Source: Trichodesmium erythraeum IMS101 (GTDB lineage: Bacteria > Cyanobacteriota > Cyanobacteriia > Cyanobacteriales > Microcoleaceae). Taken from it: 32,000 nucleotides of DNA. Of this stretch, positions 11,132 to 29,655 are shown one piece after another. A program made the translations under genes and the position numbers. Below the pieces are notes generated by a model that was not told the origin of the DNA, did not search any database, and saw nothing but the letters and a program-made list of their open reading frames with translations. Within the stretch, counting starts at the first letter, position 1. Each line of letters opens with the position of its first letter. The stretch lies in NCBI RefSeq assembly GCF_000014265.1, contig NC_008312.1:1110001-1142000 (forward strand), read 5' to 3'.

Positions 11132-11239
11132 GCGATCGCTTTCCTGTCGTTATTTTGGTCAGTCGTTATTTTGCTCAGAAACCCAATTTTCCCTATCTGC
11201 CATTTCTACAAAAATAACATTGTCAGGCTCCTGAGAAGT

Positions 11240-12537: not shown

Positions 12538-13315
12538 ATAATTTCAGTTTTTAATTATCAGTTATTAGTACGTATAAAAAAGCTATAGACTTGAAATACT
12601 GGAATTTATAGAGTATTTATTAGGCTAATAATAAAACTATTTCAGGCAATATACTCGCCCTAAAAAGTTTGATCATTAATAATAGAAAATTAATAATTAT
12701 CAAGCTCCCTATAAGCAATTGCCTGAGTCTCCTAATCATGGAATAATATAACCATATTTATTTAGTCTTTAATCAATAGTGAGGTATATAGTTATACATA
12801 TCAATTGTATTCATAGAAATATTTAATTTATGCCATATCATAAATAAGTTGGTAATCTTGTCCCATCAAGGTTTTGAGTAAAATTGGTGTAGGGTGACGG
12901 GGAGTATTTTTCACATTCTGCTAATCTGATATTCAGTTTTTTCTGCCCTCCCCATGCCTAAATATTTTGACTCTCCTATCTCTTTTACCTAAGACACAAG
13001 TACTATTACCAGTAAATTAATTAATTAAAAATTGTTATTTATAATAGAAATTTATATCATAGACTTATTAGCAAATTATGGCGTGGGATAATTGATAGTA
13101 AGTTAATCAGGTTCAATCTATTATTAATTGATAAATATTGTTTTTTTACTCTTAGAAAAATTGATTTTATTATAACTATGTTTAAGCTAATTTTCCCAAA
13201 AATATGTACTGTTTAATTATTAAAAATTAGAACGAAAAAAAGAGAAAATTTTACTATTTAATAATTGGGAAAACTAGCCTATTGTGGATAGTTTATAATT
13301 AAATTTTTAAATAAG

Positions 13316-13678
13316 TTATTTCTCCTTTACTCTAGTAATTTCAATAGTAACTTTGCCACCAAAATCGGGTATAGGTGCGGCTAATTTAGTTAAACGAACC
13401 TTGACATTTTGTACTAGTCGTTGTTGTAAAATATCTGTAGCGATCGTATTCGCTACTTTTTCTAATAAAGCAGACTTAGATTGTTTTACTAGTTTTTGGA
13501 CAGTATTAACTATACTACCATAATCTACAGTATCTTCTAAGGCATCACTTTTGCTAGCAGCAGTCAAATCTAACCCCAAAGTTAAATCTACTTCAAACCA
13601 TTGACCTAATACTTTCTCTTCTGGAAAAAATCCGATGTATCCGTAGCATCGAATTCCAGTAATGGAGATTGAGTCCAT
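13316..13678 (-). CDS. folB: dihydroneopterin aldolase
   Basis: 120-aa ORF. ITGIRCYGYIGFFPEEKVLGQWFEVDLTL ... DTVDYGSIV ... LLEKVA aligns well with E. coli FolB. Confidence 0.88.
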   Translation of the reverse strand: MDSISITGIRCYGYIGFFPEEKVLGQWFEVDLTLGLDLTAASKSDALEDTVDYGSIVNTVQKLVKQSKSALLEKVANTIATDILQQRLVQNVKVRLTKLAAPIPDFGGKVTIEITRVKEK

Positions 13679-14314
13679 AATAACTAATTAAAAAATAGTT
13701 CCATCATTTTATTATATTAAATGGTTTTAATATTAAATGGTTAAACTATTCAGATAATTTATGAAAGGGTATATATTTATTCCTTCAGTTGTTAGTTTTG
13801 AGCAAATGATGAAACGAAACCTCTCCTAAGTTAATTCTTGAGATTTTACTAAGGCATGGCTAAATTCTCCTAACACCTCGAAGATGACAATTAATACAAC
13901 GGTGGCTTGAATTTATTCCTTATTAGTGCTAATCCAACATTTTCTGGTGGCAAAAAATGAGTTAAATTAATTCTAAATAAGGGAATTAACTTAATGGTAT
14001 AAAATGATTAAACCATTGGTAATTTATGATTTATGCCTTTTTCCATCTATATTTTATATTTAAACTTATTTTCTAGCCCTATTTTGCTTAAGTGCTATTA
14101 TACTACAATTTGGCTAAAAATAATTAACTATCCTTTCTGGCCGTGGATTATTAATACAAAAAAAAGGGACTTTGTATACAATATCCCTAACTACTTGTTT
14201 AAAAAAACTAATTTTGTACTTTAAGAGTATAGAAATTACTATAAAATTGAGGATTATTGATAAAATAATATCAACCAATCACGAACCAGTAAATTATAAG
14301 CGATCGCTCTAAAA

Positions 14315-14830
14315 ATGTCTAATCCTACTAACTTAAAGAACTCCCCAAAAAATCAAGGCCATGTAGCTATTGGTATGGGTAGCAATTTGGGAGAATCCCT
14401 TGATACTCTCAAGAATGCCATTCAAACTTTAGATGAAATTGCTGGTATTAAATTAATTACTTATTCTAGTTGGTATAGAACTAAACCTATAGGTCCACCA
14501 CAACCAGATTATATTAATGGTTGTGCATTATTAAAAGTAGAATTAACCCCTCATAAATTATTAGAAGTTCTGTTAGATGTTGAACAAAAATTTAAACGGG
14601 TACGTTTAGAACATTGGGGACCTAGAACTTTAGATTTAGATTTAATTTTATATGATGATTTAATATTAGATACTCCTAATCTGCAAATACCCCATCCTCG
14701 AATGAAAGAAAGAGCTTTTGTACTTGTCCCACTAGCAGAAATAGCTCCTAATTGGATCGACCCAGTTTCGGGAAAAGCGATCGCTCTTCTTCAAGAAGAG
14801 GTAGAATGTTCTGGAATATCTAAGCTGTAA
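14315..14830 (+). CDS. folK: 2-amino-4-hydroxy-6-hydroxymethyldihydropteridine diphosphokinase (HPPK)
   Basis: 171-aa ORF with IGMGSNLG, WYRTKPIGPPQPDYINGCALL, HWGPRTLDLDLILY and IPHPRMKERAFVLVPLAEIAP, matching HPPK signatures. Confidence 0.92.
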   Translation: MSNPTNLKNSPKNQGHVAIGMGSNLGESLDTLKNAIQTLDEIAGIKLITYSSWYRTKPIGPPQPDYINGCALLKVELTPHKLLEVLLDVEQKFKRVRLEHWGPRTLDLDLILYDDLILDTPNLQIPHPRMKERAFVLVPLAEIAPNWIDPVSGKAIALLQEEVECSGISKL

Positions 14831-15502
14831 AATAGAAAATATTAACTTGATTTTCTGGTCACGGAACGTAAATTCAATAATACTGGAAATTTGTAGTTGA
14901 TACTAAGGAAATCTCTTGAGGGTAATTAATTTTCTCTAGCTTCTGGCTTGTTCTCATTCCTAAGTGAGGTATTTGAAAAAAGCAATCTATAGATAGGGGA
15001 CTTGACAGTTCAATAAAAATTGACTACACTTACTTAAACTTACACAATACTCAGGGATATTGTAACAGCATGAGTAATGAGTGAAAACTATATGAATAAG
15101 TATCCTGAGCTTCCTGGTAATTTTTTTGCCTCAATAGGAAAGATAAGTTACAGACTGCACTCAGTGGTATATGGGTGAGACACTGTAGTCTAAAGCTTAT
15201 ACAATTCCCAAACCATGTAAGTTTGGGTAAGTTTAGTAGAAGGGGAAGAGATAAATTGATCATAGATAGGATTTACTTATTGCAAAGGAATTTTGGGCAT
15301 TTGAAATTGCTAATTACGGACTGCTCCACAAAAGTTGTTGTTTGCTATTGCCAAGCTGCACTAACGCAATGACAGAATTAGTTTATTTTACATAAGTCCT
15401 AATAGAATAATATTATACCTCTTCAAAAATGAGGATTTGGAAAGGGTGGGGCAAGGATTTGAGAACTTTTATTTGAGATGTCCATTAATATTGAATATAT
15501 TT

Positions 15503-16342
15503 ATGACACAAAACAAATTTTCTGAAGCCGATACAGAGGCATTTTATGATATTGAAGACAGTCTTTATCGTAGTTTTTGGGACTCAGAGGGAAGTTTATA
15601 CTGGGGCTATTTTGAAAATTTAACTGAGGCAAAACCTAAAAATTTTATCACAGCTTGTAAACGGTGGAACGAATATATGTTGTTCCAGAGTGGGATAGAA
15701 AAAGATTCGCGAGTACTAGACCTTGTTTGTGGTAATGGCAATACTGCTATATGGCTATCCCAACAGACAGGGTGCGAATTAGTAGGAGTTGACCTCAGTA
15801 GTGTCCGCATTGAGAACGCCAAAACCAAAGCACAGCAGTACCCATCACTCAGGTTGAAGTTTATCAAGGCATGAGCAACTAATCTACCTTTTGAAGATAA
15901 AAGGTTTACCCATGTTTGGAGCCAAGCCACATTATATCACGTTCATGATCGCCATCAAGCATTACGATCAGCTTACCGCGTACTTGAGGAAGGAGGCATA
16001 TTTATATTCGATGACCTGATAAGTCCGGCACAGGAAATCAACGAAATGGCCCGTAAATATGTATACGATAGATTGCTGTTTGAACCAATATTTAGTCTGG
16101 ACTCCTATAAAGAATTCCTCAGGGAGTTAGGGTTTATGGTCTTGGTAACTAAAGACTTGAAGGAACACCTAAACAAAAGCTATGAATTGCTGTCCCAGTT
16201 AGCTTTGGCTAAATACCCGGAACTAAGTGCAGCTTATGATCAGACGTGTAAAGCAATTAAAACTAATCAATTAGGATGGGGATATTACTCATGTGAAAAA
16301 GTCAGCGATCGCCTCTCCTGGATTTACAAAAATGGTAAATAA
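15503..16342 (+). pseudogene. sarcosine/dimethylglycine-type N-methyltransferase-like gene interrupted by an in-frame TGA
   Basis: ORFs 15437..15874 and 16046..16342 are in the same frame. Read-through gives ...SLRLKFIKA*ATNLPFEDKRFTHVWSQATLYHVHD..., with TGA at 15872-15874. It has SAM motif I (VLDLVCGNGNTA) and the N-terminal FYDIEDSLYRSFWDSEGSLYWGYF. The likely start is the ATG at 15503, because the track TTG lies inside a dispersed repeat. Confidence 0.8.
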
Positions 16343-16903
16343 CATAACTTAGAGGAGAAATATGATGCCTGGGCAGCTGTTTATGATACAGACTTAGACC
16401 AACCTTATCATTGTTCTCCAGTCCATTCGGCTAATGCCTTATGGAAAGTATTGCCAGATAAGGATGCCATCATCCTAGATGCAGGAGCAGGCACAGTTAT
16501 GGTGGGTGAAGCTCTAGCAGAATTAGGATACAACAATATCATCGGGGTTGACTTTTCCGAACAAATGCTAGAAGTAGGGAGGAAAAAGCAGGTTTATACC
16601 GCTCTTTACCAAGGTAATTTGGAATAACCTCTAGCTTTTGGCTCTCAAGCAAGTTATAATCTAATATTAGCAGTTGGTGTATTCACGTTTGGTCATGCTC
16701 ATCCTCGTGCTTTAAGAAATCTGTCCAGTTTGCTGAAACCCGGTGGATATTTTGTACTAACTGTGCGAGTAAATTATTATGATGATGAGAGCAATTCCTT
16801 ACACGAGGTACTTCAAGAGTTACCTTGGAATTTAGTTACTCAAGAAAGTTTTAATATTTATGAAACCGAACCAATGTATGTTATGGTTTTGCAAAAGTCC
16901 TAA
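16343..16903 (+). pseudogene. second class I SAM methyltransferase, without a start codon and with an in-frame TAA
   Basis: Own translation, in the same frame as the previous gene, gives HNLEEKYDAWAAVYDTDLD...ILDAGAGTVMVGEALAELGYNNIIGVDFSEQML...YQGNLE*PLAFGSQ...LLKPGGYFVLTVR...VLQKS*. TAA is at 16625-16627. There is no ATG, GTG or TTG in frame near the 5' end. Confidence 0.8.
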
Positions 16904-17117
16904 TGGTACTTAAACATTTTCTGGTTGAGAAGATGGGTCAAAGTCTGTCTAGACAAGGAAATGACGTCGATACCCTAAAAATGGCTAAAACCTGTGCTGG
17001 TTCATAATTTATAGCTTGTTTTACATCGAGCCCTTTTGATGTCTATAATTTGAGTCTGTTTTCTCCCTCTATTTTTTTTAATTCCCACTGGTTGTAAATG
17101 TAGACAAAAAAGAAATC

Positions 17118-17594
17118 ATGACTACAATCAAATTAATGCATGCTAAACTTCATCGCGTACGAGTAACAGACGCAAAGCCTGACTACGTTGGCAGCGTGAC
17201 TATAGACTCGGATTTACTCGAAAAAGTAGGAATTTTGCCTTTAGAAGAAGTGCAAATAGTTAATCTTAATAATGGCCAACGTTGGTTAACTTATGTTTTA
17301 CCCGGACAAGCAGGATCGGGTATGGTTTGTCCAAATGGGGGTGCGGCACTTCTATGTAAAAAAGATGATATATTAATTATCTGGGCTAATGAACAATGCG
17401 ATCGGGCTGAAGTCCTAGAAAATGGACATAAAGCAAAAATATTTGTGGCAGATGAAAATAACCACTGCCGAGAATTTCTCTATCAAATTTTAAATCCCAA
17501 TCAAGGAAGTGTTGAATTTCACTCCCTGCCAGTAATTCCAGAAGGTAAAACATCTGAATACCTCCAACAAATGATCGAAACAAATAAAATTTAA
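17118..17594 (+). CDS. panD: aspartate 1-decarboxylase proenzyme with a ~30-aa C-terminal extension
   Basis: [25 protein letters not shown] preserves the Lys9 equivalent and the Gly-Ser self-cleavage site. LTY and PNGGAA motifs are present. It is 158 aa versus 126 aa in E. coli. Confidence 0.88.
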
Positions 17595-18063
17595 TCTTTG
17601 GAAAATAACACAGTTGAAAATAATAGGTGAGTAAATATTATACCTAATTTTATTGATTAGATATCTCCAGAAAAAGTTTTGGCACCAGATTCCGATCAGC
17701 GAAAAGCTGATTATAAAAGCTGATCATAAATATCTATATTATGCCTGACCCTATAATCAGCCTATAATAACCAGATTTAGTATCAAACCCTGGGCCCGCC
17801 GTTACCAAATAGGCATTTTTGGAGAGGTCTATTTGATAGGGAAGTAGGGAGTTGGAGAAGCCATTTAAAAATAAGTTGTACAAATTTAATCGGAAATGAA
17901 TTGTCCAATCTAGCTTCCATAAAAAAACTGTTCAGGTTATTTTGACACGAGTCTGGGAAGATAAATTTTAAATTAGTATCCCTAGTGATAGGTGCTCAAA
18001 AATCTTCTCTAACTACTTACTAATGCTAGATAATACTAGATCGAGAAATTCAAGATTTCAACT

Positions 18064-19281
18064 ATGGGCAATAGTCCATTTATTACAGTAAAAGGAAAAC
18101 GTTTCTACTACATTTGGTTGCATGATAACTTTCTGAGTTCTTAATCTCGCCATCCTACTTCCGTTCAAAAAATTTATGATATTTCTGAGGTTATAATATC
18201 TCCCAAACCTCTAAAGGTCCAGTTAACAGATAATGACCTGATTATAGACTGGGATGAAGAAACTCATCATCGCAATATTTTTCCTATTTCTTGGTTGATC
18301 AGTCATGCTTATGATGAAGCAGCAGAAAAAGGGGACTTTCACAGTAAAATCGAACTGTGCAAACAAGAAGAAATTTTATGGGATACTGCACGGATAGAAG
18401 CACATTCACCAGAAAAACACGACTTTAATTCATGCCGCCCTCTCGACAGAAGTGACTTATCTCGCCAAGGTTGTGTTGAAATATATACCTTGGGTTTTGC
18501 AGTCATCAAAAATATGCCCTTATCAGAGTTAAATAATTTTCTCAGTAGTATTGGGCCAATTCCTTATACAGAGGGGGGACACTTCTATACGGTAAAATCT
18601 AAGCCAGCGGCTAATGACATAGCTGACACTGGGCACGCGCTACCTCCCTACACAGATTATGAAAGTTATATGTATGCTTCTCACCTACTGCAATTTCTTT
18701 ACTTTAAAGCAACTAATGAAGATTCAACACTTGTAGATGGCTTTCGGGTAGCCCAAGATTTTCAAAAGCACCACCCAGACTATTTCCAAATTTTGGTAGA
18801 AACTCCTGCTCAGTTCCAGCAGTTTTACACAGAGTGGAAATATTATCACCGTCTAGACTATTTCCAAATTTTGGTAGAAACTCCTGCTCAGTTCCAGCAG
18901 TTTTACACAGAGTGGAAATATTATCACCGTCGTAGTCGCCGGATCATTGAATTAGACATAAAAGGGGAGGTTTCAGGAGTTTATTTTGGTAACTCCCACG
19001 CTTGTAATTGGGATATTCCTTTTGACAAAATGGAAAAATTCTATGAGGCTTATAGTCAATTCTTCCGTTATTTGAAAAGTCCTGAATATCAGTATCATTT
19101 CCGTTCAGAAGCAGAAGACTGCCTAATGATTCAGAATTTTCAAGTGCTACATGGAAGAACAGCTTTTGATGCTAATTCTGGTTCGCGACATCTAGAGGTT
19201 TCTTATGTAGCTTGGAATTACTTTACAGGAAGAGAAATTTTTCGGCAGTTTCAACATTTGTACTTGAATGAGAATTATTAA
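18064..19281 (+). pseudogene. gamma-butyrobetaine hydroxylase / TauD-family Fe(II)/2-oxoglutarate dioxygenase, decayed
   Basis: The frame is continuous from ATG 18064: MGNSPFITVKGKRFYYIWLHDNFLSS*SRHPTSVQK..., with TAA at 18142-18144. The N-terminal GBBH-type Zn-Cys motif has lost its cysteines. The canonical HTD reads YTD (PPYTDYESY). The distal VLHGRTAF is retained. There is also a 26-aa internal duplication. Confidence 0.8.
18777..18932 (+). repeat. perfect 78-bp tandem duplication inside the dioxygenase pseudogene
   Basis: 18777-18853 is identical to 18855-18931 (agactatttccaaattttggtagaaactcctgctcagttccagcagttttacacagagtggaaatattatcaccgtc). This duplicates DYFQILVETPAQFQQFYTEWKYYHR in frame. 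Confidence 0.95.
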
Positions 19282-19342
19282 ATTAGATGATTTGAGAAGT
19301 TGGTTAATGAGGCATCAAAATGAGTATTTGGTAGATACCCAC

Positions 19343-20268
19343 TATATAGAACCTATTTGGGATCTTTTTTTGCCGTTCAGGCGATCGCCAATCTCTTAAG
19401 CATAAGTCTAACAAAACAAAGATTAATCTTGGTGGTGGCATTCTCAAGAGTTCTTTCAAAGTTTTTGACTAAACTCTTACATCTTTCCATCCAAGAATTA
19501 GTTCTTTCAATGACCCATCTAGCTTTGACGGGTACAAAACCCCTTTGTCCCTGCTTCTTCTTCGAGGGCTTTCGAGGGCTTAGGTGAGAGCTTAAACCGA
19601 ATCTTGGTCATAATCGCTGGATAAATTTTTTTCAACTCAATCGTTAATTTTTCCGGGTGATATCCGTATGTCTGAAGAATAGTGATTTTAGGAATATTGA
19701 CAGGTTTAGATTTGAAGTAATTAATATTGTCAGACAACATTTCAATTAATCCCACATCATCAGAGACTGATGCTTTAGTACAATGAGTAAAAAAAGGAAA
19801 ACCTAGGCTATCTACTGCTAGATGCCGCTTGATTCCATTAGTACTCTTGTAAAAGCAAAATCCTTTCGACTCTGTACTTGCATTACAAGTATTTTTGACT
19901 GCTTGTGAGTCAATGATGATTAAAGTTGTCCCGGAGCGCTTTTTTTTTTACCTTTTGACGCAGTTGTCCATGTAAAACATCTCTAATCTTCTCAATTACC
20001 CCTTCCAATACGCCATTGTTTGTAGTGCCAAAATACCGTCGAATAAGGAGGTAAATCCTTGGGTAAATCACACCAGTTACAACCATTCTTAAGTTGGTAG
20101 AGAACACCATCCAATATTTCTCTTTTAGTCCATTTGGGGGGAAAAGTTCTTTTCTTTTTGGGTAACAGGGGTTCAATTATAACCCACTCCTCATCTGTCA
20201 AGCTACTAGAATATGGCATTTTCTATCCATTATAGTCTTTCAGAAAGATCCCAAATGGCTTCTATATA
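19343..20268 (-). mobile_element. IS5-family insertion sequence (about 0.93 kb), degenerate
   Basis: Terminal inverted repeats tatatagaacctatttgggatcttt (19343-19367) and the complement of 20244-20268 (tatatagaagccatttgggatcttt) match at 23 of 25 positions. They enclose a DDE transposase reading frame. Confidence 0.88.
19377..20219 (-). pseudogene. IS5-family DDE transposase split over three frames
   Basis: The N-terminus is MPYSSSLTDEEWVIIEPLLPKKKR...LYQLKNGCNWCDLP. The frame changes near 20010, again at the A10 tract (T10 on the plus strand, 19940-19949), and at a 10-bp tandem duplication (19561-19570 equals 19571-19580). Removing one 10-bp copy restores ...SKKKQGQRGFVPVKARWVIERTNSWMERCKSLVKNFERT... 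Confidence 0.85.
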
Positions 20269-20398
20269 TTTAGATATGTATGGTTATAATGGCTCAAAAA
20301 ATTGGAATTCAATTCTGAAAAGATTCTAGGTAGTTTATTTTAATAAATTTAATGAATCTTAACTAATGCAAGAAGTAGACAAATAATTTTAACTGATG

Positions 20399-20479
20399 CA
20401 GGACTTACGCTAAAATGTATAAGTTATGTTTTTTGTAGGGGCTAACAACAGAAGTTAAAAAGTTTGTGTGTAAGTTCTG
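20399..20479. repeat. small hairpin-ended dispersed repeat (MITE-like), copy C, 28 bp upstream of the first SDR gene
   Basis: caggacttacgc at 20399-20410 and taagttctg at 20471-20479 form the termini, with one mismatch to the taagtcctg arm. Confidence 0.55.
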
Positions 20480-20507
20480 TGATGATTAAATTTAATTCTC
20501 AAAGACA

Positions 20508-21227
20508 ATGATTAAAAAAGCACTTGTAACGGGTTCAGCAGTTGGAATAGGTAGGGCGATCGCTCTCGACTTAGCTAGGAAAGGATTTGATGTAGCATTT
20601 CACTATAACCGAAGTGCAGAAGCAGCCAACCAAGGAAGTCAAGAAGCAGCTACCTACGGAGTCAAGTCTATTGCTCTACAAGCAGATGTTACTAAACCAG
20701 AGCAAGCTAAATCTTTAGTAGAAAATGCAGCCGAAAAACTCGGAGGGTTATCTGTTGTAGTTAATAATGTGGGAAACTTTCTGGAAAAAACAACTAGTCA
20801 AATATCCATAGAAGAATGGGATGAAATGCTTGATTCAAATTTAAATTCCACTTTCTATGTCACTCAAACAACAATTCCTTACCTCAAGGCAGCAGGTTGG
20901 GGACGTATTGTCAACTTCAGTTTCGCAAGTGCCCAACATCTAAAAGCAGATGACCAACAAACAGCCTATAGAATTGCCAAAACTGGTATAATCATCTATA
21001 GTAAGTCCCTAGCTCAAGAATTAGTTAAGGATAAAATTACAGTAAATGTAGTTGCCCCAGGAGCAGCAGAAAATACTATTGGTCTGGAGGAAACTATTCC
21101 TCTGCTCCCAACTAAGCGACCTGCAACTTTGAAAGAAGTAACTCATGCAGTTGCTTTTTTTGTCAGTCCTGAGTCAGATTACATTACTGGGCAAGTTCTG
21201 GAAGTAGCAGGGGGTTACAGGTTGTAG
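20508..21227 (+). CDS. SDR-family NAD(P)-dependent oxidoreductase, copy 1 (possibly pteridine-reductase-like)
   Basis: 239-aa ORF with TGSAVGIGRA (TGxxxGxG), NNVGN and the YRIAK (YxxxK) catalytic motif. Confidence 0.88.
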   Translation: MIKKALVTGSAVGIGRAIALDLARKGFDVAFHYNRSAEAANQGSQEAATYGVKSIALQADVTKPEQAKSLVENAAEKLGGLSVVVNNVGNFLEKTTSQISIEEWDEMLDSNLNSTFYVTQTTIPYLKAAGWGRIVNFSFASAQHLKADDQQTAYRIAKTGIIIYSKSLAQELVKDKITVNVVAPGAAENTIGLEETIPLLPTKRPATLKEVTHAVAFFVSPESDYITGQVLEVAGGYRL

Positions 21228-21310
21228 CAATACTTAGCTATTTTCCTTGACAAAGATTGGGAATTTTAGCCGACTGAAAATTGTTATTGATTAAATAAAG
21301 GAGTTCAAAA

Positions 21311-22216
21311 ATGCTTACTCTCGCAGAAATCTACGAAATTTATGACAAATATAAAGATGACTACAATACCCAAATAGAAGAGTTCAGTATTGGGAATAAA
21401 AAATTTAATTTTAATTCTCAAACATCTATTTTAGGAATCATTAATCTTTCTCAAGATTCTTGGTATAAGCAAACTATTTCTTACACTCCAGAACAAGCAA
21501 TTCGCCGTGGAAAAGTATTAACACTTCAAGGTGCGGATATTATAGATATTGGCACTGAGTCTACTGTGAAAACTGCAGCTAGGGTAGACGAGTTGAAACA
21601 AACAAGTCAACTTTTGCCTATTCTGAAAACTTTCAGTCAAGAAGGTGTGTTAACTTCAGTGGAAACTTATTATCCAGAAGTTGCCAGAGAATGCTTAAAA
21701 GCAGGTGCAAATGTCATCAACTTTCTGGGAACTGAGCATAGTGAAGAAATGTATCAAGCTGTAGCTGACTTTGATGCAGCAATTATTATTTGTTATGTAG
21801 AAGGAAAACACGCTAGAGATGTAGGGGAATTTGACTTTACTTCAGGTAGAGATATGATAGATGTACTATACAATTATTTTGAAAAAGAGATAGAAATAGC
21901 AACGAAAATAGGAGTGAAAAAGATTTTTATTGATCCAGCAGTAGGTGTAGGATACACAAATTTTTACTACCAACACAAAAATGTATCAAATAGAATGAGA
22001 TATCAAATTGAAACTCTTTTAAATGCTTTTCGGCTTAGAAAATTAGGCTTTCCTGTTTTTAATCAAATACCTACAGCTTTAGAAATTTTTGGAGAAGAGT
22101 TTAGAAGTGCTCAAGTGTTCACGGCAGTGTTTGCAGCACTAGGAAAAAATGATATGATTAGAACTCATGAAGTTGCTAAAGTTAAAGCTCTTTTAGAAAC
22201 TCTGAGTTGCTTGTGA
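21311..22216 (+). CDS. dihydropteroate synthase-like pterin-binding domain protein, copy 1 (divergent active site)
   Basis: 301-aa ORF with ILGIINLSQDSWY, GADIIDIGTEST, LTSVETYY, GANVINF, IFIDPAVG and IRTHEV. These align to the DHPS motifs ImGIlNvTpDSF, GAdiiDiGgeSTRPG, SiDT, iND, DPGiGF and RvHDV, with substitutions. Confidence 0.75.
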   Translation: MLTLAEIYEIYDKYKDDYNTQIEEFSIGNKKFNFNSQTSILGIINLSQDSWYKQTISYTPEQAIRRGKVLTLQGADIIDIGTESTVKTAARVDELKQTSQLLPILKTFSQEGVLTSVETYYPEVARECLKAGANVINFLGTEHSEEMYQAVADFDAAIIICYVEGKHARDVGEFDFTSGRDMIDVLYNYFEKEIEIATKIGVKKIFIDPAVGVGYTNFYYQHKNVSNRMRYQIETLLNAFRLRKLGFPVFNQIPTALEIFGEEFRSAQVFTAVFAALGKNDMIRTHEVAKVKALLETLSCL

Positions 22217-22246
22217 TAGTTTAGATAGAACTTAATATTCAAGACA

Positions 22247-22966
22247 ATGCTAAAAAAAGCACTTGTGACAGGTTCAGGAGTGGGAATAGGTAGGGCGATC
22301 GCTCTTGACTTAGCTGAGAAAGGATTTGATGTAGCATTTCACTATAACCGGAATGCCGAGGCAGCTAACCAAGCAAGTCAAGAAGCAGCTACCTACGGAG
22401 TCAAATCTATTGCTCTACAAGCAGATGTGACTAGGCCAGAGTCAGCTCAATGTTTAGTAGAAAATGCAGCAGAAAAACTTGGAGGTTTATCAGTAGTAGT
22501 CAATAATGTGGGCAACTTTTTAGGAAGACCTACTAGCAAAATATCCATAGCAGAGTGGCAGGAAGTTATTGACTCTAACCTCAATTCCAATTTCTATGTT
22601 ACTACAGCAGCACTCCCCCATCTGAAAGCAGCTAATGGGGCACGAATAGTTAATTTTGCTTGCGCTCATGCTCAAAATGTGGTAGCACGAAAGACAAATA
22701 CGGCTTATGTAATTGCCAAAACAGGGATTATCATCTATAGTAAGTCTCTGGCTCAAGAGCTGATTAAAGACAAAATTACTGTTAATGTAGTATCTCCTGG
22801 AATAGCTGAGAATTCTTTTGACCTAGAAGAAATGATTCCTAAGTTACCTGCTAAACGTCCAGCAACTTTGCGAGAAATTAATCATGCAGTTTGGTTTTTT
22901 ATTAATCCTAATTCTGATTATATTACAGGACAAATTATAGAAGTATCTGGTGGTTGGAATTTATAG
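22247..22966 (+). CDS. SDR-family NAD(P)-dependent oxidoreductase, copy 2
   Basis: 239-aa ORF, collinear with copy 1. By my manual alignment it has 181 of 239 identical residues (~76%): 83 of 95 in the N-terminal part and about 68% in the remainder. Confidence 0.88.
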   Translation: MLKKALVTGSGVGIGRAIALDLAEKGFDVAFHYNRNAEAANQASQEAATYGVKSIALQADVTRPESAQCLVENAAEKLGGLSVVVNNVGNFLGRPTSKISIAEWQEVIDSNLNSNFYVTTAALPHLKAANGARIVNFACAHAQNVVARKTNTAYVIAKTGIIIYSKSLAQELIKDKITVNVVSPGIAENSFDLEEMIPKLPAKRPATLREINHAVWFFINPNSDYITGQIIEVSGGWNL

Positions 22967-23345
22967 ACAGGAAATAGGGAATATCAAAGGCAAAAGATAG
23001 AAGCTAGAAGGGAAGAAAAAGCACTTATGGGAGAAGTTTTTTTTATGATTGATGATCCGGATATGATATGACATATATCTGGCAATTTTTGGGAATTTTA
23101 GATTCAAAAAAATAGCTGTAATCAAATGGATAGTAGGAAAAAATTTAACTTATTTAGGTTAGTCAGCCTCTGACTAATAAATAAGGTCTTAAGCACTTTT
23201 ATTTAAGGGAGATAAGAAAGAAAATTTCTGGTTTTTTTGCCTCCGGATGAAACTATAGGTACTGCTTCCCTACGGCACATGAAAAACGTACTTCCTCCCC
23301 CACCAAAGCTAATTAATAACTAATAACTGATAACGGATAAATGAT

Positions 23346-24239
23346 ATGCTGAATCTTGAAGATTTATATACAATCCATGAACAAAACCAAGATTCTATAA
23401 AAGCCAAAGTAGAAGAATTTTCTATTGGTAATAAGCAGTTTAACTTTAATACTGAGAAAGCTATTTTAGGAGTAATAAATCTTTCTAATGATTCTTGGTA
23501 TAGAGAAAGTGTCTGTTTGAGTGCAGAAACAGCCATTCGTAGAGGAATAGTTTTGAAGTCTCAAGGTGCAGATGTAGTAGATATTGGAGCAGAATCAACT
23601 TTAGAAAAGGCGGAAAGAGTAGAAGATATTAGGCAAAAAAGTCAAATTTTGCCAGTTCTGAAAGCCCTTCATCAAGAAGGTGTTTTAACTTCTATAGAAA
23701 CATATTATCCAGAAGTTGCCACGGAATGTTTAAAAGCAGGAGCTAATATAATTAATTTAACTGGACCCGAAAAAAGTGCAGAAATTTATCAGACTGTATC
23801 TGAATTTAATGCGGGGGTAATTATCTGTTATGTTCAGGGAAAAAATGTTAGAGAAGTAGGTGATTTTGATTTTGGAGATGACCCCACAAATTTAATGTAT
23901 GAATATTTTGCTCAAGAAATAGAAACGGCAACTAAGTATGGTGTGAGAAAAATATTTATTGACCCTGGTTTAGGATTTTATTATAAAAATCTTCAGGATA
24001 GTTCTTTACGAATTGGTTATCAGATGAAAACTTTTTTAAATACTTTTAGATTGAGGAAATTAGGTTTTCCAGTATGTCATGCACTTCCCCATGCTTTTGA
24101 ATGTTTTGGAGAAGAAGTTAGAAGTGCTGAACCTTTTTTTTGTGTCTTGGCTGCACTGGGAAAAACTGACTTATTTAGAACTCATGAAGTTCCTAAAATT
24201 AGAGCTGTTTTAGATACTTTGGGATTATTTCAAAAATAA
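23346..24239 (+). CDS. dihydropteroate synthase-like pterin-binding domain protein, copy 2
   Basis: 297-aa ORF, collinear with 21311..22216 and roughly 55-60% identical by eye. It carries the same variant motifs: ILGVINLSNDSWY, GADVVDIGAEST, SIETYY, IFIDPGLG and FRTHEV. Confidence 0.75.
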   Translation: MLNLEDLYTIHEQNQDSIKAKVEEFSIGNKQFNFNTEKAILGVINLSNDSWYRESVCLSAETAIRRGIVLKSQGADVVDIGAESTLEKAERVEDIRQKSQILPVLKALHQEGVLTSIETYYPEVATECLKAGANIINLTGPEKSAEIYQTVSEFNAGVIICYVQGKNVREVGDFDFGDDPTNLMYEYFAQEIETATKYGVRKIFIDPGLGFYYKNLQDSSLRIGYQMKTFLNTFRLRKLGFPVCHALPHAFECFGEEVRSAEPFFCVLAALGKTDLFRTHEVPKIRAVLDTLGLFQK

Positions 24240-24809
24240 GGAAGTAGGGGGAATTTCTAGTGGTGTACTAACATCCCCAAAACAAAAATGTAGGCCTTTG
24301 TAGAATAAAGTGAATCCTAACAAACCTGTTCTCCTCTTTTGGTTAGATTTCGTCCCTCAGCCTAACTAACCTCTATTGCAGCAATTTTAGTTGTGTTAGT
24401 CTAGTAGAGTGCCTTAGACGGTTTAATTTAGGCTGTCAAAGGTATTTATAAATATGTTGTAATGCACTATTTTAGTGGTATTATTCTAGTTGTTTATGCC
24501 CTGATGGAACTTATCACCAATTTCCTCAAGTTAAGAACATATAACTTGATATCTTATCTTTCAAGCTTGATAGACTACTTTTGGAAGTTAAGTTTTAAGT
24601 TGATGAAATTGGTATTATACAAAATAGTAGTAGAAAATAGGGTTAAAGTTAGTAGCAAGGAAGAAGGAATAAAAAACTTAAATTTGAGTAGAGAGTTCCC
24701 AAAAGTTGAGGTATGTAATAATAGATATGCTTCAATTTTATTTCTTCCTGATAGTCTTCTTAATTCGTTACCTTTTAGTTTTACTTATAACTGATAGCTG
24801 AGGTGTTAA

Positions 24810-25254
24810 ATGAAAAAAAAAAGATGAAAAAGATCAAACTATAAAAAATGAATCTGACTCAGAAACTTGGGTAATAGGTAAAGAGTTTAGGTTTGAAGCT
24901 TCTCATCAACTACCTAATCATGATGGGAAATGTGCAAGATTACATGGTCATTCTTGGCGTGGTGTTATTTATGTTTCTGGTAATAAGTTGATAACTTCTG
25001 GAGCTAAAAAAGGTATGATTATGGATTATGGAGATATTAAAAAATATCTCCAACCACTACTGGATAATTATTTAGACCATTACCATTTAAACGAAACTAC
25101 AGGTTTAGCTAACCCAAGCAGCGAAGCCATAGCTAAATGGATTTACGAACAATTAGAAAATAAAATTCCTGGGCTTGTAGCAGTTAGAATTGATGAAACT
25201 TGTACCAGTCAATGTATTTATTCAAAAGGTAAAATTAATTTTTTGATTTCTTAG
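24810..25254 (+). pseudogene. 6-pyruvoyl-tetrahydropterin synthase / 6-carboxytetrahydropterin synthase (PTPS/QueD family) with its start codon out of frame
   Basis: The frame from 24814 reads KKKDEKDQTIKNESDSETWVIGKEFRFEASHQLPNHDGKCARLHGHSWRGVIYV...DETCTS, which contains the Cx3HGH motif. The only upstream ATG (24810) is separated from it by an A10 tract (24813-24822) and is off by one nucleotide. The track TTG start at 24988 would delete the catalytic motif. Confidence 0.75.
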
Positions 25255-25427
25255 AATAAAGAGTCAGTAATTAGTAGCTAGGATAAAAAAAATACTATAT
25301 TTTTTTGTTTATTAAATAGTCATCATAAATTGGATTCAAACTTTTTATAAGAGTTAATTTGAACCGAACTTTTTTAAAGTTATTGCTCCTGATTTTTAAC
25401 TTGTGAATTATTTCTTTCTGTAAGCAT

Positions 25428-25448
25428 TCAGCTATCAGCTATCAGCTA
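25428..25448. repeat. heptanucleotide tandem repeat (tcagcta, 3 copies), STRR-like
   Basis: Three exact copies, read directly from the sequence. Confidence 0.85.
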
Positions 25449-25740
25449 GTGTCTAGTGACAAAAGTTAGTAATATTATTTTTAGACAGCGCTTTTCAAAT
25501 TGATGAACTACATCGCCATAACCAAAACCTTGTAGAGAAATTGCATATAGGTAGGTTGCATAAGGGCGTCCCTATAGTGGTCTACTGTGGAGAAAAACTA
25601 CCGTAATTTATACAATTAGACACTAGAAGGAAAAATTAGTCTCCAAAAAGAATTAAAAGTCTGACACGAAAAAGATAATCAGCTTTAAGTAAGTATTTTA
25701 TTACTTTCATTGGTTTCTTGTCTTAGCAAATGATCAGAGT

Positions 25741-26359
25741 TATAATGAATCTAATGCCACATACCAAGGGCGAGAAGTTAACCATCAAAGTGCTAAAGGA
25801 GCTGCCTATATCGAACGTTTTAATATTTTTTTAAAGCGCAAAGGTTTACCCTTCAGTTATGTTAGTATTTGCGAATTAGTTTATTATATAGGTGTAGTTC
25901 ATCAGCTATTTTTGTGAAATAAAAATATCCTGAATGACCTTACTTGTTGTAATGAAGCACAGTGGTCTGAAGAAGATGTGCGATGGTGTTGTCAATGCGC
26001 AAAATGTGCTTTTTCTTATGCTTTAATTGAAGCCGTAACAGATTATCATTTTGCCTCCCAGGTAGTAGGAAAAGACTTATTTAGCTTAAAAAAAAATTGA
26101 GGATATTTGGAAACGTTTATTTGACCCAAATTATGAGAAACCATTTGAGTGTGTTGGTGAAAAACGTGAGACTTTGATGGCTTTAGTTAAATGCCGAAAA
26201 CAACGTCTCAAAAATGGCGAATCTTTGGGTATTCTGGCCGAGATACCTGAAGTCGAATTTGATAAATCTCTACTAAAAATATCTACTCCTCAAAATATTC
26301 CAATTCAACATCAAGAAAAACTTAATTTGGTTTTGACTGAATCAGGTAAATATTCTTAA
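25741..26359 (+). pseudogene. C-terminal remnant of a Cys-rich protein of unrecognised family
   Basis: Own translation gives YNESNATYQGREVNHQSAKGAAYIERF...HQLFL*NKNILNDLTCCNEAQWSEEDVRWCCQCAKCAFSYALIEAV...SLKK, with TGA at 25915-25917. The frame then changes inside an A9 tract (26088-26096) and continues IEDIWKRLFDPNYEKPFECVGEKRETLMALVKCRK... to the stop at 26359. No N-terminal half is present. Confidence 0.55.
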
Positions 26360-26645
26360 TCATTTAGGGATTTTTAAACAAAAATAACTTATACACTCAA
26401 ACAAGAAACTGGGTTTATTATCTTGATTTTTCAAGTCACAAAATTTTGCATTATAACCATACTTCTAGGTAACTCCTAATCAAAAAATATTCGATTACTG
26501 TGAATTTAAAGAGTAGGAAATAGAGACAGGAAAACAAAAAAGTATATTCCCAAAATTAAATCAAGCATATTCCAGATTACAGGGTAAATATTTTTTGTTT
26601 ACTCCCTATTCTACTACCTTATTAATTAGGGCTGGCTGATTAAAT

Positions 26646-26739
26646 CAGGACTTACGGACCAAGCGCTATATCTAGTAGGGTTTAACAGCCGTTAACTTCT
26701 ACAGATCATGTATATTTTCATCTGCGTGAATAAGTCCTG
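26646..26739. repeat. small hairpin-ended dispersed repeat (MITE-like), copy D
   Basis: caggacttacgg at 26646-26657 and taagtcctg at 26731-26739 are inverted termini 94 bp apart. Confidence 0.6.
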
Positions 26740-27029
26740 TAAATATTAAAATATTAACTGATATTAGTTACTGTTTTTTAGGGTCGAAAAAAGTACCCGG
26801 CTTTCAGTGAAAAATCCTTATACATTTTAGAGTTTTGGGCTGACCATAGCAGAAAAATCAAGGGACAAATATATTCGACTACCTACTCACTATTATGTAT
26901 TGATGCTGCATAAAAATTCCATACCTACTCCCCTATTTTTCCTCCTGGGAGGGGTTAGGGGTAGGTTGGTTATAGTTAGGGGTGAATACCTTTTTTCAAT
27001 ACTCCTTAAAAATGTTTTTTCAGCAAACC

Positions 27030-28022
27030 CTATATACTTTTTTGGCAGAGATAAACTCCTTCTTCTTGATTAGCAGATTCCCAATAATTCAACATATTTA
27101 TCCCATAACTACTGAGGATTTCTTGGAGTTTTGCAGTAGTATAACGGTAGGAAAAAAATAACCCAATTTTATCTCCGCTTTTCCATTCTATCAATTGATT
27201 ATCCAATTTAAAAGTCACATCATTATTTAATTCAAAATCAGCATTAACTCTTTTTAAATCAGGTTTTTCCTCATCATCTTTAATCCTAAATTTAATGCTC
27301 CCATTTTCCCGGTTAACTCCCACATCTTCCAATACAGTAGTTAGCCAATCTTTAGTCAAGTTATTATTATATTGCGCCATTATTTTTTCAATACCTTGAA
27401 CATAGTCAGAACCAGGTGCTAAATTTGCACTTAATAGCAATAAATCTCCCTCAACCAAAAAATTGTTTAAAATTGGGAAAATTTCCTGGGGATGAAAATT
27501 AGGAATCATGCCAAAAAATGTAATAATTCTCCTTTCCTGCTCACTTCTTTTCTGAATCTGAAGCATTAAATTATCACTATGAAGTAAATCACAAACAATT
27601 GGTTGTACAGATAATTCAGGAAAAGAACTCCTAGCTTTTTGAGCAGAAATTATTGCTAGAGATAAACTAACATCTAGAGGATAATAAGTTAATTCTCGTC
27701 GTTTATTAGATAAGTAGGACAATAACAAACTATCTTTAGTTCCACCACCAGAACCTAATCCAATTAACTGTAAACTGGAAAATTTATCTAGAGTTTCTGC
27801 TGTTTTTTGGAAACATTTTTTATAAGTATCAACACAATTTCTATCATTTTGAGAAGGGGAATATTCTTGATGAATTTTTAACCATTTTTGACTTTGCTTA
27901 ACACTATCATAATGAAACTTATGATTAATTTTTTTCCCCGAGAAACTAACTAAATAATCTTGATAAACTTGGTCCGGAAATTGACTTGGATGTACAAATA
28001 CTTGTTCAAATGTTGCTGACAT
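27030..28022 (-). CDS. EgtD-like SAM-dependent methyltransferase (histidine N-alpha-methyltransferase family, divergent)
   Basis: 330-aa ORF. LIGLGSGGGTKDSLLLSYL, YYPLDVSLSLAI, FFGMIPNFHPQEIFPILNNFL and GDLLLLSANL parallel the EgtD motifs ELGSGSSxKT, YvPiDiS, FpGSsIGNF and GDxLLlGxDL. Confidence 0.6.
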   Translation of the reverse strand: MSATFEQVFVHPSQFPDQVYQDYLVSFSGKKINHKFHYDSVKQSQKWLKIHQEYSPSQNDRNCVDTYKKCFQKTAETLDKFSSLQLIGLGSGGGTKDSLLLSYLSNKRRELTYYPLDVSLSLAIISAQKARSSFPELSVQPIVCDLLHSDNLMLQIQKRSEQERRIITFFGMIPNFHPQEIFPILNNFLVEGDLLLLSANLAPGSDYVQGIEKIMAQYNNNLTKDWLTTVLEDVGVNRENGSIKFRIKDDEEKPDLKRVNADFELNNDVTFKLDNQLIEWKSGDKIGLFFSYRYTTAKLQEILSSYGINMLNYWESANQEEGVYLCQKSI

Positions 28023-28144
28023 AATAATTAAAGATTATTTGATTTAGGATAAGCAAATATTGGATATGATAATAAATTTATAAGTGGAACTCAAGGAATT
28101 CAAAATCAATATTAATGACAAATAATTCCTTGATTTTAATTGTT

Positions 28145-29647
28145 TTATCTTGAACGTTTAATTCCACCCTTGCGTTTAACTTCAAAACCATATCGATAAA
28201 TATCGGGGATATTAATTCTCCGATCTAAGCGAATTTCAACAATACCTAATTGTTCTAAGTATTGTAAAATTTCTTGGGGCTTTAATGAAGGTGGTTCTTG
28301 GTTCCATTTTGTGTTTTCTAGTAAGTTGAGAAATTTTTCTTCTTCAGTTAGAAGTGTTAAATCTTTAAGTTCTTTTCTTAAAGCTTCTAACCAGGGATAT
28401 TCTTCCTCTGTAAGTTCTTTGATTCGATCTTGAGAGGTATCCATTAAAGCTCCTTGTAAATCAGAAGGTTCTAATAAGCGATTTTCGGGCAATTCTTTTT
28501 CGTCAAATTTTTCTAATCTACGCTCTGCAGCCAAGGAGAATAACCTTAAAAAAGAACGAGGAGAAATGCTACGTTTTGCATCTTGAAGGTGATTAGAAAT
28601 CCAGTTATAAGTGTAGCCTTTGCGAGGATTTTCTCCCATAAATACCCCAACTATTTTTTCCATTAATAATTCAAAACGAGATTCATCTGATGTAGGTAAT
28701 ATACCTAGGATGTTATCTCTTTTTAAAGTTGAAGGAATTAAATCAGGAACTATTTTTAAATAATCATTCATTTCTTCTCCAGAGTTAGCTAAACGCTTTA
28801 CCAATAACTGATATAACAATGGAGTTTTCCACTCTAAAGTAATTTGATGTCCCCTGAGTTTAGAAGCATCTGGAAATCCTAAAAAATCGTGTTGAAATAA
28901 GTCTGTGCGTAGAAATATTTTGGGTCTAATTCGTTCCCAACGACGCCATCTATCTAGCCAAAATGCTAATAGTTCGGCGATGGGAGCCCGCAGTTTTAAA
29001 TAAGAAGGAACAATTCGATCTAGTTCATCATAAGTGATAAATAACCAGCGATCGTCTGCCAATAATTCTTCATCTAATTTATCTAAAGCATAGTTGATAC
29101 TTTCAAAGTTCTGGCGAGCATCTGGAAACCAGCCGGAAAGTAATGATAATTTGTTAGTTAAACAACCACGAATGTCCTCTGGTATTTCCTGAGCCCAATT
29201 GTGATTTGATAATTCTTTTTCTTGTTGAAATATTACTCCTAATACCAATCCGATCCAAAAAATACGCCAATCACTTCTATCCTTGTCTTTCATGTAGTTT
29301 TCTGTTACATCTGGTGTAGGAAATTTTTTTTCCCTAGTCTTAGTACGACCATATCCAGCAATCCAAATTGTTTTTTCTAAAGGGGGTAAGCGTTTAATTG
29401 TTAAGTTTTTTACTAAGGCTTTGCGACCATTAGGACTTCCTAGTAAACGAAAAAATTCTGTTTTACCAACACCTCTGCCACCTAATATTAAAAATGTATC
29501 AGTGTCCAATGTCTTACGGTAGCGATCTACAGGTAAAAAGTTTTTTAGAAATAAATTTTCATTATCACTTTCATGTTCAGCTATACCTTTTCCTGGTGTA
29601 ACATTAGCCATAATTTCTAATAGCTTTTTTTTATCAAAGTTAGTCAT
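28145..29647 (-). CDS. P-loop NTPase (Walker A/B ATPase) with a basic, possibly winged-helix C-terminal tail
   Basis: 500-aa ORF with Walker A LILGGRGVGKTEFF and Walker B-like WLFITYDELDRI. The C-terminus is ILQYLEQLGIVEIRLDRRINIPDIYRYGFEVKRKGG. Its start lies 8 nt after the upstream gene's stop, and the spacer contains AGGA. Confidence 0.8.
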   Translation of the reverse strand: MTNFDKKKLLEIMANVTPGKGIAEHESDNENLFLKNFLPVDRYRKTLDTDTFLILGGRGVGKTEFFRLLGSPNGRKALVKNLTIKRLPPLEKTIWIAGYGRTKTREKKFPTPDVTENYMKDKDRSDWRIFWIGLVLGVIFQQEKELSNHNWAQEIPEDIRGCLTNKLSLLSGWFPDARQNFESINYALDKLDEELLADDRWLFITYDELDRIVPSYLKLRAPIAELLAFWLDRWRRWERIRPKIFLRTDLFQHDFLGFPDASKLRGHQITLEWKTPLLYQLLVKRLANSGEEMNDYLKIVPDLIPSTLKRDNILGILPTSDESRFELLMEKIVGVFMGENPRKGYTYNWISNHLQDAKRSISPRSFLRLFSLAAERRLEKFDEKELPENRLLEPSDLQGALMDTSQDRIKELTEEEYPWLEALRKELKDLTLLTEEEKFLNLLENTKWNQEPPSLKPQEILQYLEQLGIVEIRLDRRINIPDIYRYGFEVKRKGGIKRSR

Positions 29648-29655
29648 TTTCCTAC

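Follow-up and report, generated by a model that had tools for sequence, protein, structure and literature searches.

The 32,000-nucleotide stretch of the Trichodesmium erythraeum IMS101 genome analyzed here (contig NC_008312.1, positions 1,110,001 to 1,142,000 of the forward strand), henceforth called the window, contains two copies of a cassette that joins a gene for a short-chain dehydrogenase/reductase (SDR) to a gene for a protein resembling dihydropteroate synthase (DHPS). The locus raises the question of which reaction is served by two DHPS relatives from which residues of the canonical enzyme are missing, and how the two cassettes came to stand side by side. The four genes concerned are the following:

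20508..21227, + strand: SDR1 of cassette A, predicted TmpR-type short-chain reductase of 239 amino acids (Pfam adh_short)
21311..22216, + strand: DHPS-like 1, referred to as type A, 301 amino acids (PF00809)
22247..22966, + strand: SDR2 of cassette B, predicted TmpR-type short-chain reductase of 239 amino acids
23346..24239, + strand: DHPS-like 2, referred to as type B, 297 amino acids (PF00809)

The reading preferred in this work, to which a probability of about one half is assigned, is that the DHPS-like enzyme would use 6-hydroxymethyl-7,8-dihydropterin pyrophosphate (DHPPP) and attach its pterin-methyl group to an acceptor tied to N-methylated amino-acid chemistry instead of p-aminobenzoate (pABA), whereupon the SDR would make the tetrahydro form. 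An earlier inspection of the bare DNA, here called the original prediction, had described two SDR and DHPS-like cassettes, and the four open reading frames (ORFs) were found exactly where it had placed them. The cassettes are arranged head to tail with a 30-bp junction between them, and the ORF coordinates yield spacers between the SDR and the DHPS-like gene of 83 bp in the first cassette and 379 bp in the second, the same values as given previously. Ungapped alignment of SDR1 and SDR2 revealed 181 identical residues out of 239 (76%), and the two DHPS-like proteins share 57% identity, in line with the earlier figures of about 76% and 55-60%. The type A protein is a 100% match to a T. erythraeum IMS101 database entry that is named dihydropteroate synthase. 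The 379-bp spacer contains no repeat shared with the rest of the window, an Rfam scan of the region 11000-28500 detected neither a riboswitch nor any other Rfam family, and promoter and terminator scans gave no signals above chance.

Both DHPS-like proteins were recognized by the Pterin_bind profile PF00809, with scores of 103.9 bits for type A and 105 bits for type B. The scores obtained with the FolP equivalog TIGR01496 (110.6 and 114.3 bits) lie below its cut-off of 162.6, and those obtained with the archaeal DHPS-like family TIGR00284 (23.2 and 22.7 bits) are far below the respective cut-off of 256.65. All 44 matches of a sequence search against the PDB are DHPS, as are the best 50 fold matches of an AlphaFold2 model of type B (predicted local distance difference test score 88, predicted template-modelling score 0.89), which were detected with template-modelling scores of 0.70-0.78 at about 22% identity. 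MeTr and MetH were thus not among the nearest relatives in either search. The suggestion that the proteins fall outside characterised families, including the corrinoid methyltransferases, was therefore upheld by the profile and fold comparisons.

An alignment to E. coli FolP, whose sequence is identical (100%) to that of PDB 1aj0 and whose numbering is used throughout, agreed with the motif losses and the retained pterin positions that had been noticed at the outset. Both proteins keep Asn22, Asn115, Asp185, Arg255 and His257, carry a Glu in place of Asp96 and have no Asp after Asn115. The Ser-Thr-Arg-Pro-Gly sequence of loop 2, which gates pyrophosphate and pABA in FolP, reads ESTVKT in type A and ESTLEK in type B, such that Arg63, Pro64 and Gly65 are gone. 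Position 221 is occupied by an Ala in the site-table alignment; another alignment shifts this segment by one or two residues, and no Lys or Arg is present at positions 219-223 in either placement. Throughout the clade, the Ser-Arg-Lys-Ser segment is replaced by PHAF (type B) or PTAL (type A). Moreover, the losses of Lys221, Arg63 and Pro64 extend to the whole family. The residues for pterin and pyrophosphate show no variation within it, Asn22, Arg255 and His257 of the pyrophosphate site being present in 25 of 25 aligned sequences. Family-wide motifs comprise NLSxDSxYRES, GAEST without the RPG, SVET, INxTG, DPGxGFYY, FRLRxLGxPV, EExRxAE and RTHEV, along with LPHAF, which reads IPTAL in type A, and all members share an N-terminal extension with an extra helix of about 40 residues.

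Judged by these comparisons, the DHPS-like pair is assigned to a clade that stands well apart within the DHPS superfamily and is uncharacterised. The clade resembles FolP (EC 2.5.1.15) in the TIM-barrel DHPS fold, in the five retained residues, in adjoining folB and folK genes and in the name given by databases. However, it is 22-30% identical to canonical DHPS, with GFYY instead of GFGK and Glu instead of Asp96 besides the sub-cut-off scores; it is devoid of Lys221, the Ser-Arg-Lys sequence and the loop-2 Arg-Pro-Gly, carries the clade motifs FRLRxLGxPV, LPHAF and EExRxAE, and has a methyltransferase and a betaine-type transporter as gene partners. A second non-canonical clade of the DHPS superfamily (P0194, P0208, P0209, P0222, P0226 and P0270), characterized by the motifs NLSPESxN, GAQSS, ALPRK and LRAHD, branches off between the canonical enzymes and the present clade.

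The SDR partners were assigned with the profile NF012208, which represents the bifunctional dihydropteridine reductase/dihydrofolate reductase TmpR. Both exceeded its cut-off of 325 bits (SDR1 382.7 bits, SDR2 378.8 bits), and both alignments span model positions 1-233 of 233. The SDRs carry the YxxxK motif and the ordinary TGx3GxG motif, which reads TGS(A/G)VGIG. The TGx3RxG motif that defines the pteridine reductases FolM, PTR1 and PruA (PMC1971073, PMC13259868) is absent from both of them. The namesake of NF012208, Tm8-3, is an SDR from a soil metagenome that confers trimethoprim resistance and, as summarised in a review (PMC4166954), possesses dihydrofolate reductase (DHFR) activity, a report confined to this one clone. 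The likeness to TmpR and Tm8-3 accordingly consists in full-length matches above the family cut-off and in the classical Tyr-x3-Lys and Gly-rich motifs, whereas the founder is a trimethoprim-resistance clone from soil and the Trichodesmium SDR is the operon partner of a DHPS-like gene. On these grounds the SDRs are predicted to be TmpR-type dihydropterin/dihydrofolate reductases.

The relationship between the two cassettes was deduced from trees that were calculated by neighbour-joining only, with bootstrap support over 200 replicates. Type A was recovered in 200 of the 200 replicates and cyanobacterial type B in 196; type A and cyanobacterial type B grouped together in 187 replicates and, with a Verrucomicrobiota sequence added, in 197, and the whole family was separated from canonical DHPS in 197. 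Among the matches listed, orthologues of type A with 67-79% identity occur in Hormoscilla, Limnoraphis, Rivularia, Okeania, Roseofilum and Nodularia, and orthologues of type B (295-297 amino acids) with 76-93% identity in Okeania, Brasilonema, Scytonema, Lyngbya PCC 8106, Dolichospermum and Prochloron; type B orthologues with 59-67% identity are present in many Verrucomicrobiota. Since each type is nearer to foreign orthologues than to the other type, the cassettes are deduced to be the products of an ancient duplication within the cyanobacteria and not of a recent local event. Outgroup sequences were consistently 6-14 percentage points more identical to type B than to type A, which marks type A as the fast-evolving copy. 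A tree of the C-terminal halves of the SDRs reproduces the A/B division of the DHPS-like proteins, the half of SDR1 grouping with A-cassette SDRs of other cyanobacteria and that of SDR2 with B-cassette SDRs (79-82% identity to Scytonema and Brasilonema), which argues for duplication of the cassette as a unit. In comparison with orthologues from Lyngbya or Scytonema, the ratio of nonsynonymous to synonymous divergence (dN/dS) is 0.21 for type A, 0.055-0.074 for type B and 0.13-0.16 for the SDRs. All four cassette genes are under purifying selection.

The head-to-tail order, the 30-bp junction and the uneven divergence would also be expected if a tandem duplication had taken place recently and locally in Trichodesmium, after which one copy drifted and the N-terminus of the SDR was kept by constraint alone. 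Such a course of events is highly improbable, however, given that each copy has nearer orthologues in other genera, that the A and B clades are strongly supported, that Lyngbya PCC 8106 likewise possesses both cassettes, inside one 14-kb pterin cluster, that dN/dS values of 0.21 (A) and 0.055 (B) were obtained against orthologues, and that the synonymous divergence (dS) in the 5' part of the SDR genes is 4.5-fold lower, which protein constraint cannot explain. Of the tandem duplication proposed originally, the head-to-tail pair therefore stands, but its recent local origin had to be dropped in view of the old paralogue clades and the closer orthologues elsewhere. The accompanying idea that the substrate-facing parts diverged in situ was likewise abandoned, as types A and B are old paralogues and type A is a fast lineage.

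Beyond the cyanobacteria and Verrucomicrobiota, a search of 1.84 billion cluster representatives detected 53 clusters with E < 1e-30, full length (about 300 amino acids) and 33-43% identity, canonical DHPS following at about 1e-25 and weaker. High-GC members of the family were found by a separate search in freshwater Actinobacteria, including Nanopelagicales.

The greater likeness of the SDR N-termini, as the original prediction had remarked, is evident from an identity of 87% over residues 1-100 versus 68% over residues 101-239. At the nucleotide level, the dS between SDR1 and SDR2 is 0.275 for codons 1-60, 0.68 for codons 61-100 and 1.25 for codons 101-239, at a dN/dS of 0.15-0.26 along the whole gene. 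Moreover, a tree of SDR residues 1-100 groups the A and B SDRs of Trichodesmium and of Lyngbya by species cluster and not by cassette type, in conflict with the C-terminal tree, which groups them by cassette type. Of the two explanations offered at first, gene conversion and strong constraint, homogenisation of the SDR 5' halves by gene conversion is favoured by these sequence patterns, because dS and not only protein divergence is low in the 5' part and because the half-gene trees disagree. The uneven divergence of the cassettes is accounted for by the acceleration of the type A lineage together with conversion of the SDR 5' part. In Lyngbya PCC 8106 (L010), the segments 1949-2368 and 8843-9262 form a 419-nucleotide tract with 99% identity that consists of 360 nucleotides upstream and the first 60 nucleotides of both SDR genes. 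The presence of this tract at the same site points to very recent conversion and thus to a process that is still active. The tract also carries a TauD fragment of 83 amino acids, copied before each cassette. The locus provides a clean natural case of partial gene conversion between old paralogues.

With respect to the reaction, the genomic surroundings of the cassettes are informative. Three further genes of the window belong to this context:

13316..13678, - strand: FolB (dihydroneopterin aldolase), TIGR00525 with 102.9 bits versus 72
14315..14830, + strand: HPPK (FolK), TIGR01498 with 143.7 bits versus 54
27030..28022, - strand: EgtD-like methyltransferase (Methyltransf_33), PF10017 with 95.7 bits, intact

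A survey of other genomes, in which counts are lower bounds and cyanobacteria are under-sampled, revealed the association of an SDR with a DHPS-like gene to be a real and recurrent unit, as had been proposed. Type A occurs in FolB-HPPK-SDR-A operons, and type B together with Nudix, SDR, HPPK and FolB genes and the EgtD-like Methyltransf_33 gene, frequently with a MurL-like gene, a PTPS gene and a thioredoxin-reductase-like gene in addition. FolB was found in both A and B clusters of other genomes, and HPPK adjoins SDR and DHPS-like genes in L007, L008, L010, L011, L014-L021 and L093, the last of these being a distant family member with SDR, HPPK and FolB neighbours. In every cyanobacterial B locus examined, the EgtD-like gene adjoins type B or lies in the same cluster. 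About 33 of 71 Verrucomicrobiota loci have a convergent methyltransferase gene beside type B, no other neighbour being specifically conserved; a marine relative (L094) also has a convergent methyltransferase partner (28% identity, E 7e-37), and in L019 the methyltransferase gene is co-directional and separated from the SDR gene by at most 6 bp. A search with E. coli FolP (tblastn) over the first 92 loci, those numbered below L093, matched DHPS-like genes only, and no canonical FolP was found near them.

The methyltransferase of the window scored 80.8 bits with the EgtD equivalog TIGR03438 and the Pedosphaera partner 55.9 bits, both below the cut-off of 290.9, and a single-sequence search of the window protein against the PDB gave no match. 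The profile of the partner methyltransferases aligns end to end with EgtD structures (E 3e-7), and the amine-binding Asn of the G-x-I-x-N motif is kept. The Glu position that we take to bind the imidazole ring in EgtD is not conserved in the alignment. The partner thus resembles EgtD over its whole length and in this Asn, but differs from it by its score, and locus L021 harbours a separate, true egtB-egtD pair (ergothioneine) directly upstream. Permease-OpuAC fusions of the glycine-betaine transporter type were detected in three loci, namely the cyanobacterial L018 and L021 and the Verrucomicrobium locus L079, in which the fusion gene overlaps the type B start codon and the 10-kb flanks contain no methyltransferase match. 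A permease-OpuAC fusion with a separate ATPase is also what we take to be the architecture of EgtUV-type transporters. The transporter and egt genes are located at 1231-3784 in L021, 13385-15736 in L018 and 8365-10008 in L079. In the alga Amorphochlora amoebiformis (P0133/P0570), a member of the family carries a pterin-4a-carbinolamine dehydratase (PCD) domain as a fusion partner, in transcript-derived and genome-derived records alike.

The idea that type A clusters with a conserved methyltransferase of its own was rejected, as the pair of a 379-aa methyltransferase and a HAD protein occurs in Nodularia only (L008, L009); the HAD protein of the window shows no more than 27% identity, and MT201 had no match. 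In the actinobacterial loci L095, L097 and L098, the DHPS-like gene is divergent to a PF00756 esterase gene (esterase D / S-formylglutathione hydrolase family), and in L095 and L097 an aminotransferase and SDR pair is located downstream of it.

The preferred route can be outlined in five steps. HPPK and FolB, encoded 6 kb upstream, would supply DHPPP, and the DHPS-like enzyme would ionise this compound in the manner of DHPS, for which the pyrophosphate site (Asn22/Arg255/His257) and the pterin site (Asp/Glu96-Asn115-Asp185) are kept. The pterin-methyl group would then be transferred to an acceptor other than pABA, a proposal prompted by the loss of Lys221, Ser219-Arg220 and the loop-2 Arg-Pro-Gly. 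The acceptor would probably be an N-methylated or betaine-type amino-acid derivative, furnished by the EgtD-like methyltransferase or by OpuAC-type import, and finally the SDR would turn the 7,8-dihydro product into a tetrahydropterin. Each of the two types would make or serve a variant of its own. In favour of this route are the separation of the clade, the DHPS fold with its invariant pterin and pyrophosphate residues and its lost pABA-side motifs, the adjoining genes for DHPPP supply, the reductase and methyltransferase partners, the quaternary-amine links (the OpuAC fusions and the BBOX-like TauD gene beside cassette A), the algal PCD fusion, the listing of a third FolP homologue (see below) and the purifying selection on all four genes. 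It is tentatively suggested, with a good deal of reserve, that the clade in combination with an EgtD-like methyltransferase or betaine-type transporter and a reductase makes an undescribed 6-substituted tetrahydropterin in which a betaine-type amino-acid derivative replaces pABA. If so, folate and methanopterin would be joined by a third type of pterin conjugate, to be expected in cyanobacteria (bloom-forming and marine ones), Verrucomicrobiota, Actinobacteria of fresh water and some algae. The PCD fusion in the alga hints that such a compound would serve as a redox or oxygen-activating cofactor. A parallel in concept is provided by the archaeal MptH (H4MPT-type; TIGR00284). There, too, an enzyme related to DHPS couples DHPPP with a molecule that is not pABA, giving rise to a folate-like cofactor, and a dihydropterin reductase specific to the pathway acts afterwards. 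However, the scores of about 23 bits versus a TIGR00284 cut-off of 256.65 set the pair apart from MptH, and no genes for RFAP synthase or other methanopterin enzymes were seen in the annotated loci.

The main competing explanation is a folate module that is genuine although atypical: the DHPS-like proteins would use pABA or pABA-glutamate, the SDRs would be the missing dihydrofolate/dihydropteroate reductase, and the two cassettes would encode redundant or differently regulated isozymes. The clustering with FolB, FolK and Nudix genes speaks for it, and so do the SDR scores, which exceed the threshold of a family that takes its name from DHFR activity. The founder of that family, Tm8-3, is a trimethoprim-resistance DHFR according to the review. 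A precedent for the combination of DHPS and reductase is the Helicobacter Dhfr2 fusion (PMC1971073). Furthermore, a RibD_C (DHFR-like) gene lies 18 bp upstream of a family member in a Nanopelagicales metagenome-assembled genome, in the position of the reductase, an arrangement that suits the preferred route as well.

The inventory of folate genes bears on this explanation from both sides. The SEED table of de Crecy-Lagard et al. 2007 (PMC1971073) lists for T. erythraeum IMS101 the FolP pegs 4951, 652 and 654, FolK peg 642 and FolB peg 641 as the only ones, and no Dhfr0, Dhfr1 or Dhfr2; its transaldolase-like 'FolB2' list includes peg 636. The other cyanobacteria of the table have one FolP each, which is not beside folB or folK. 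From the matching order we infer that pegs 636, 641, 642, 652 and 654 are the tal, folB, folK, type A and type B genes of the window. Since these pegs fit the gene order of the window, the third FolP homologue is located elsewhere in the genome, which suggests that types A and B are accessory and that peg 4951 is the ordinary FolP. The lack of a listed DHFR and the presence of the only listed FolB and FolK at this locus favour a folate module, whereas the third FolP homologue weighs against it. Further arguments against it are the scores below the FolP equivalog cut-off and the absence from the whole clade of Lys221 and the loop-2 RPG, which are conserved in the canonical sequences compared. 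Moreover, the most widely conserved partners, an S-adenosylmethionine-dependent methyltransferase and a betaine transporter, are not needed for folate synthesis, and the heavily sequenced model cyanobacteria of the SEED table are absent from the named best 120 matches of either type. Taken together, a folate module appears rather unlikely. Should the acceptor be pABA after all, the SDRs would be a concrete candidate for the 'missing' DHFR of FolA-less cyanobacteria, and a DHPS would be shown to work without Lys221.

A second alternative is that the proteins bind pterins without alkyl transfer, as carriers, sensors or MeTr-like methyl-transfer components that use a methyl-tetrahydropterin; the methyltransferase and betaine genes would then reflect one-carbon or methyl-group metabolism. 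This would fit the loss of the catalytic Lys221, the links to quaternary-amine genes and the composition of the PF00809 superfamily, which includes methyltetrahydrofolate methyltransferase domains. But Asn22, Arg255 and His257 are invariant family-wide, and it is difficult to see why a pyrophosphate site would persist in this way if the substrate carried no pyrophosphate. Many loci also include an adjacent HPPK gene of their own, none of the annotated loci showed a gene for a corrinoid protein, and the best 50 fold matches are all DHPS, such that this alternative is considered improbable. A precedent in its favour is the mycobacterial FolP2 (Rv1207, PDB 2vp8), a DHPS paralogue that fails to complement a folP mutant (PMC1971073). 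FolP2 is retained in addition to a canonical FolP, as may also hold for the proteins studied here, but its gene clusters with cell-wall genes and not with folB/folK, and the protein stands outside the clade, matching type A (E 2.7e-12) more weakly than many canonical DHPS do.

Several observations weigh against pterin-methyl transfer to an acceptor other than pABA. The members of the family are known from sequence, a structural model and gene context alone. The set of Nudix, FolB, FolK, reductase and DHPS-like genes also resembles a folate operon, the only listed FolB and FolK of a genome in which no DHFR was recognised are located here, and peg 4951 is a putative FolP, known from the SEED listing. 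Loop 2 retains basic residues that are possible stand-ins for Arg63. The OpuAC association comprises three loci, two of which are related, the PCD fusion is confined to one algal lineage, and most loci of Verrucomicrobiota and Actinobacteria have neither HPPK nor a reductase nearby.

No description of the clade was found in literature searches on DHPS-like and FolP-like proteins, Trichodesmium DHPS, cyanobacterial DHPS in connection with EgtD and pterins, EgtD-like/PF10017 enzymes and slr2026. Thousands of its entries in databases are named 'dihydropteroate synthase' despite falling short of the FolP equivalog cut-off; since they do so and are devoid of certain residues that the canonical DHPS sequences compared conserve, metabolic reconstructions and inferences on sulfonamide targets may be wrong. 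The organisms that might be affected include Trichodesmium, Dolichospermum, Nodularia, Pedosphaera and acI-type Actinobacteria. With an acceptor other than pABA, the clade would open the way to a new pterin cofactor or metabolite of ecologically dominant bacteria.

The cassettes are surrounded by repeats and gene remnants, and the claim that they remained intact in a decaying region was corroborated. The EgtD-like gene and the four cassette genes, the latter with dN/dS values of 0.055-0.21 against orthologues, are intact amid broken PTPS, MurL-like, CmcI-like and TauD genes. The features concerned are:

18082..19281, + strand: damaged gene of a TauD-family dioxygenase (BBOX/TMLH/TmpA type), 47% identical to Lyngbya TauD over residues 16-372
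19910..20219, - strand: IS4/5 transposase fragment (PF13340 DUF4096) that splits CmcI-like methyltransferase remnants
20398..20480, no strand assigned: inverted-repeat element resembling a miniature inverted-repeat transposable element (MITE), arms 20398-20410 and about 20468-20480, 28 bp before the ATG of SDR1
24811..25254, + strand: PTPS/QueD-like gene with broken frame, 89% identical to the PTPS of the Lyngbya cluster over residues 13-141
25708..26344, + strand: MurL-like remnant, residues 253-465 only in two frames (tblastn)

An in-frame stop near 18140, upstream of the ORF at 18295, interrupts the TauD gene, which also contains at 18777-18931 a perfect in-frame tandem duplication of 78 bp (2.0 copies, 100% match). 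Its best NCBIfam matches are all trimethylammonium hydroxylases, each with a score below the cut-off, and a BBOX-like TauD gene is located beside cassette A in both Lyngbya and Trichodesmium. The CmcI-like remnants at 19280-19345 and 20261-20326 match residues 211-232 and 230-251 of Lyngbya CmcI, 22 residues each. The CxxxHGH motif of the PTPS/QueD-like gene is intact. Two independent assemblies (L001, L002) show an identical run of ten A residues (A10) in this gene, and because of this run its ATG at 24811 is out of frame. The gene is probably a pseudogene, although the A10 run could alternatively represent a slippage-prone start region. An intact MurL-like gene is present downstream of type B in L010, L011, L013, L018, L020 and L021. 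The 500-aa protein encoded at 28145-29647 was considered as a MurL-like partner and turned out to be a Sll1717-family P-loop ATPase instead.

The hairpin recognized earlier 28 bp upstream of the first gene coincides with the inverted-repeat element (folding z = -2.1). Its terminal motif CAGGACTTACG has 5 matches in the window versus 0.18 expected, and the copies at 1300, 3982 and 26645 are each accompanied by an inverted partner AAGTCCTG about 60-70 nucleotides downstream. The designation 'MITE-like' is fair, because the motif recurs in the window with inverted partners. The resulting element family of about 85-95 nucleotides has the termini CAGGACTTACG ... YRTAAGTCCTG and comprises four copies on the + strand (1300-1390, 3982-4070, 20398-20480 and 26645-26735), all of them intergenic; a weaker fifth motif match is located at 30042-30054 on the - strand.

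At 28145-31581, a run of genes on the - strand encodes, besides the Sll1717-family P-loop ATPase of 500 aa, a ParA/MinD-like ATPase of 466 aa and a protein of 174 aa with weak, sub-threshold similarity to HEPN proteins. Possibly, the run is a module for defence or partition that has no connection with the pterin genes. Upstream, at 4252-10267, the window contains an intact fbp-tal-zwf-opcA operon of the oxidative pentose phosphate pathway.

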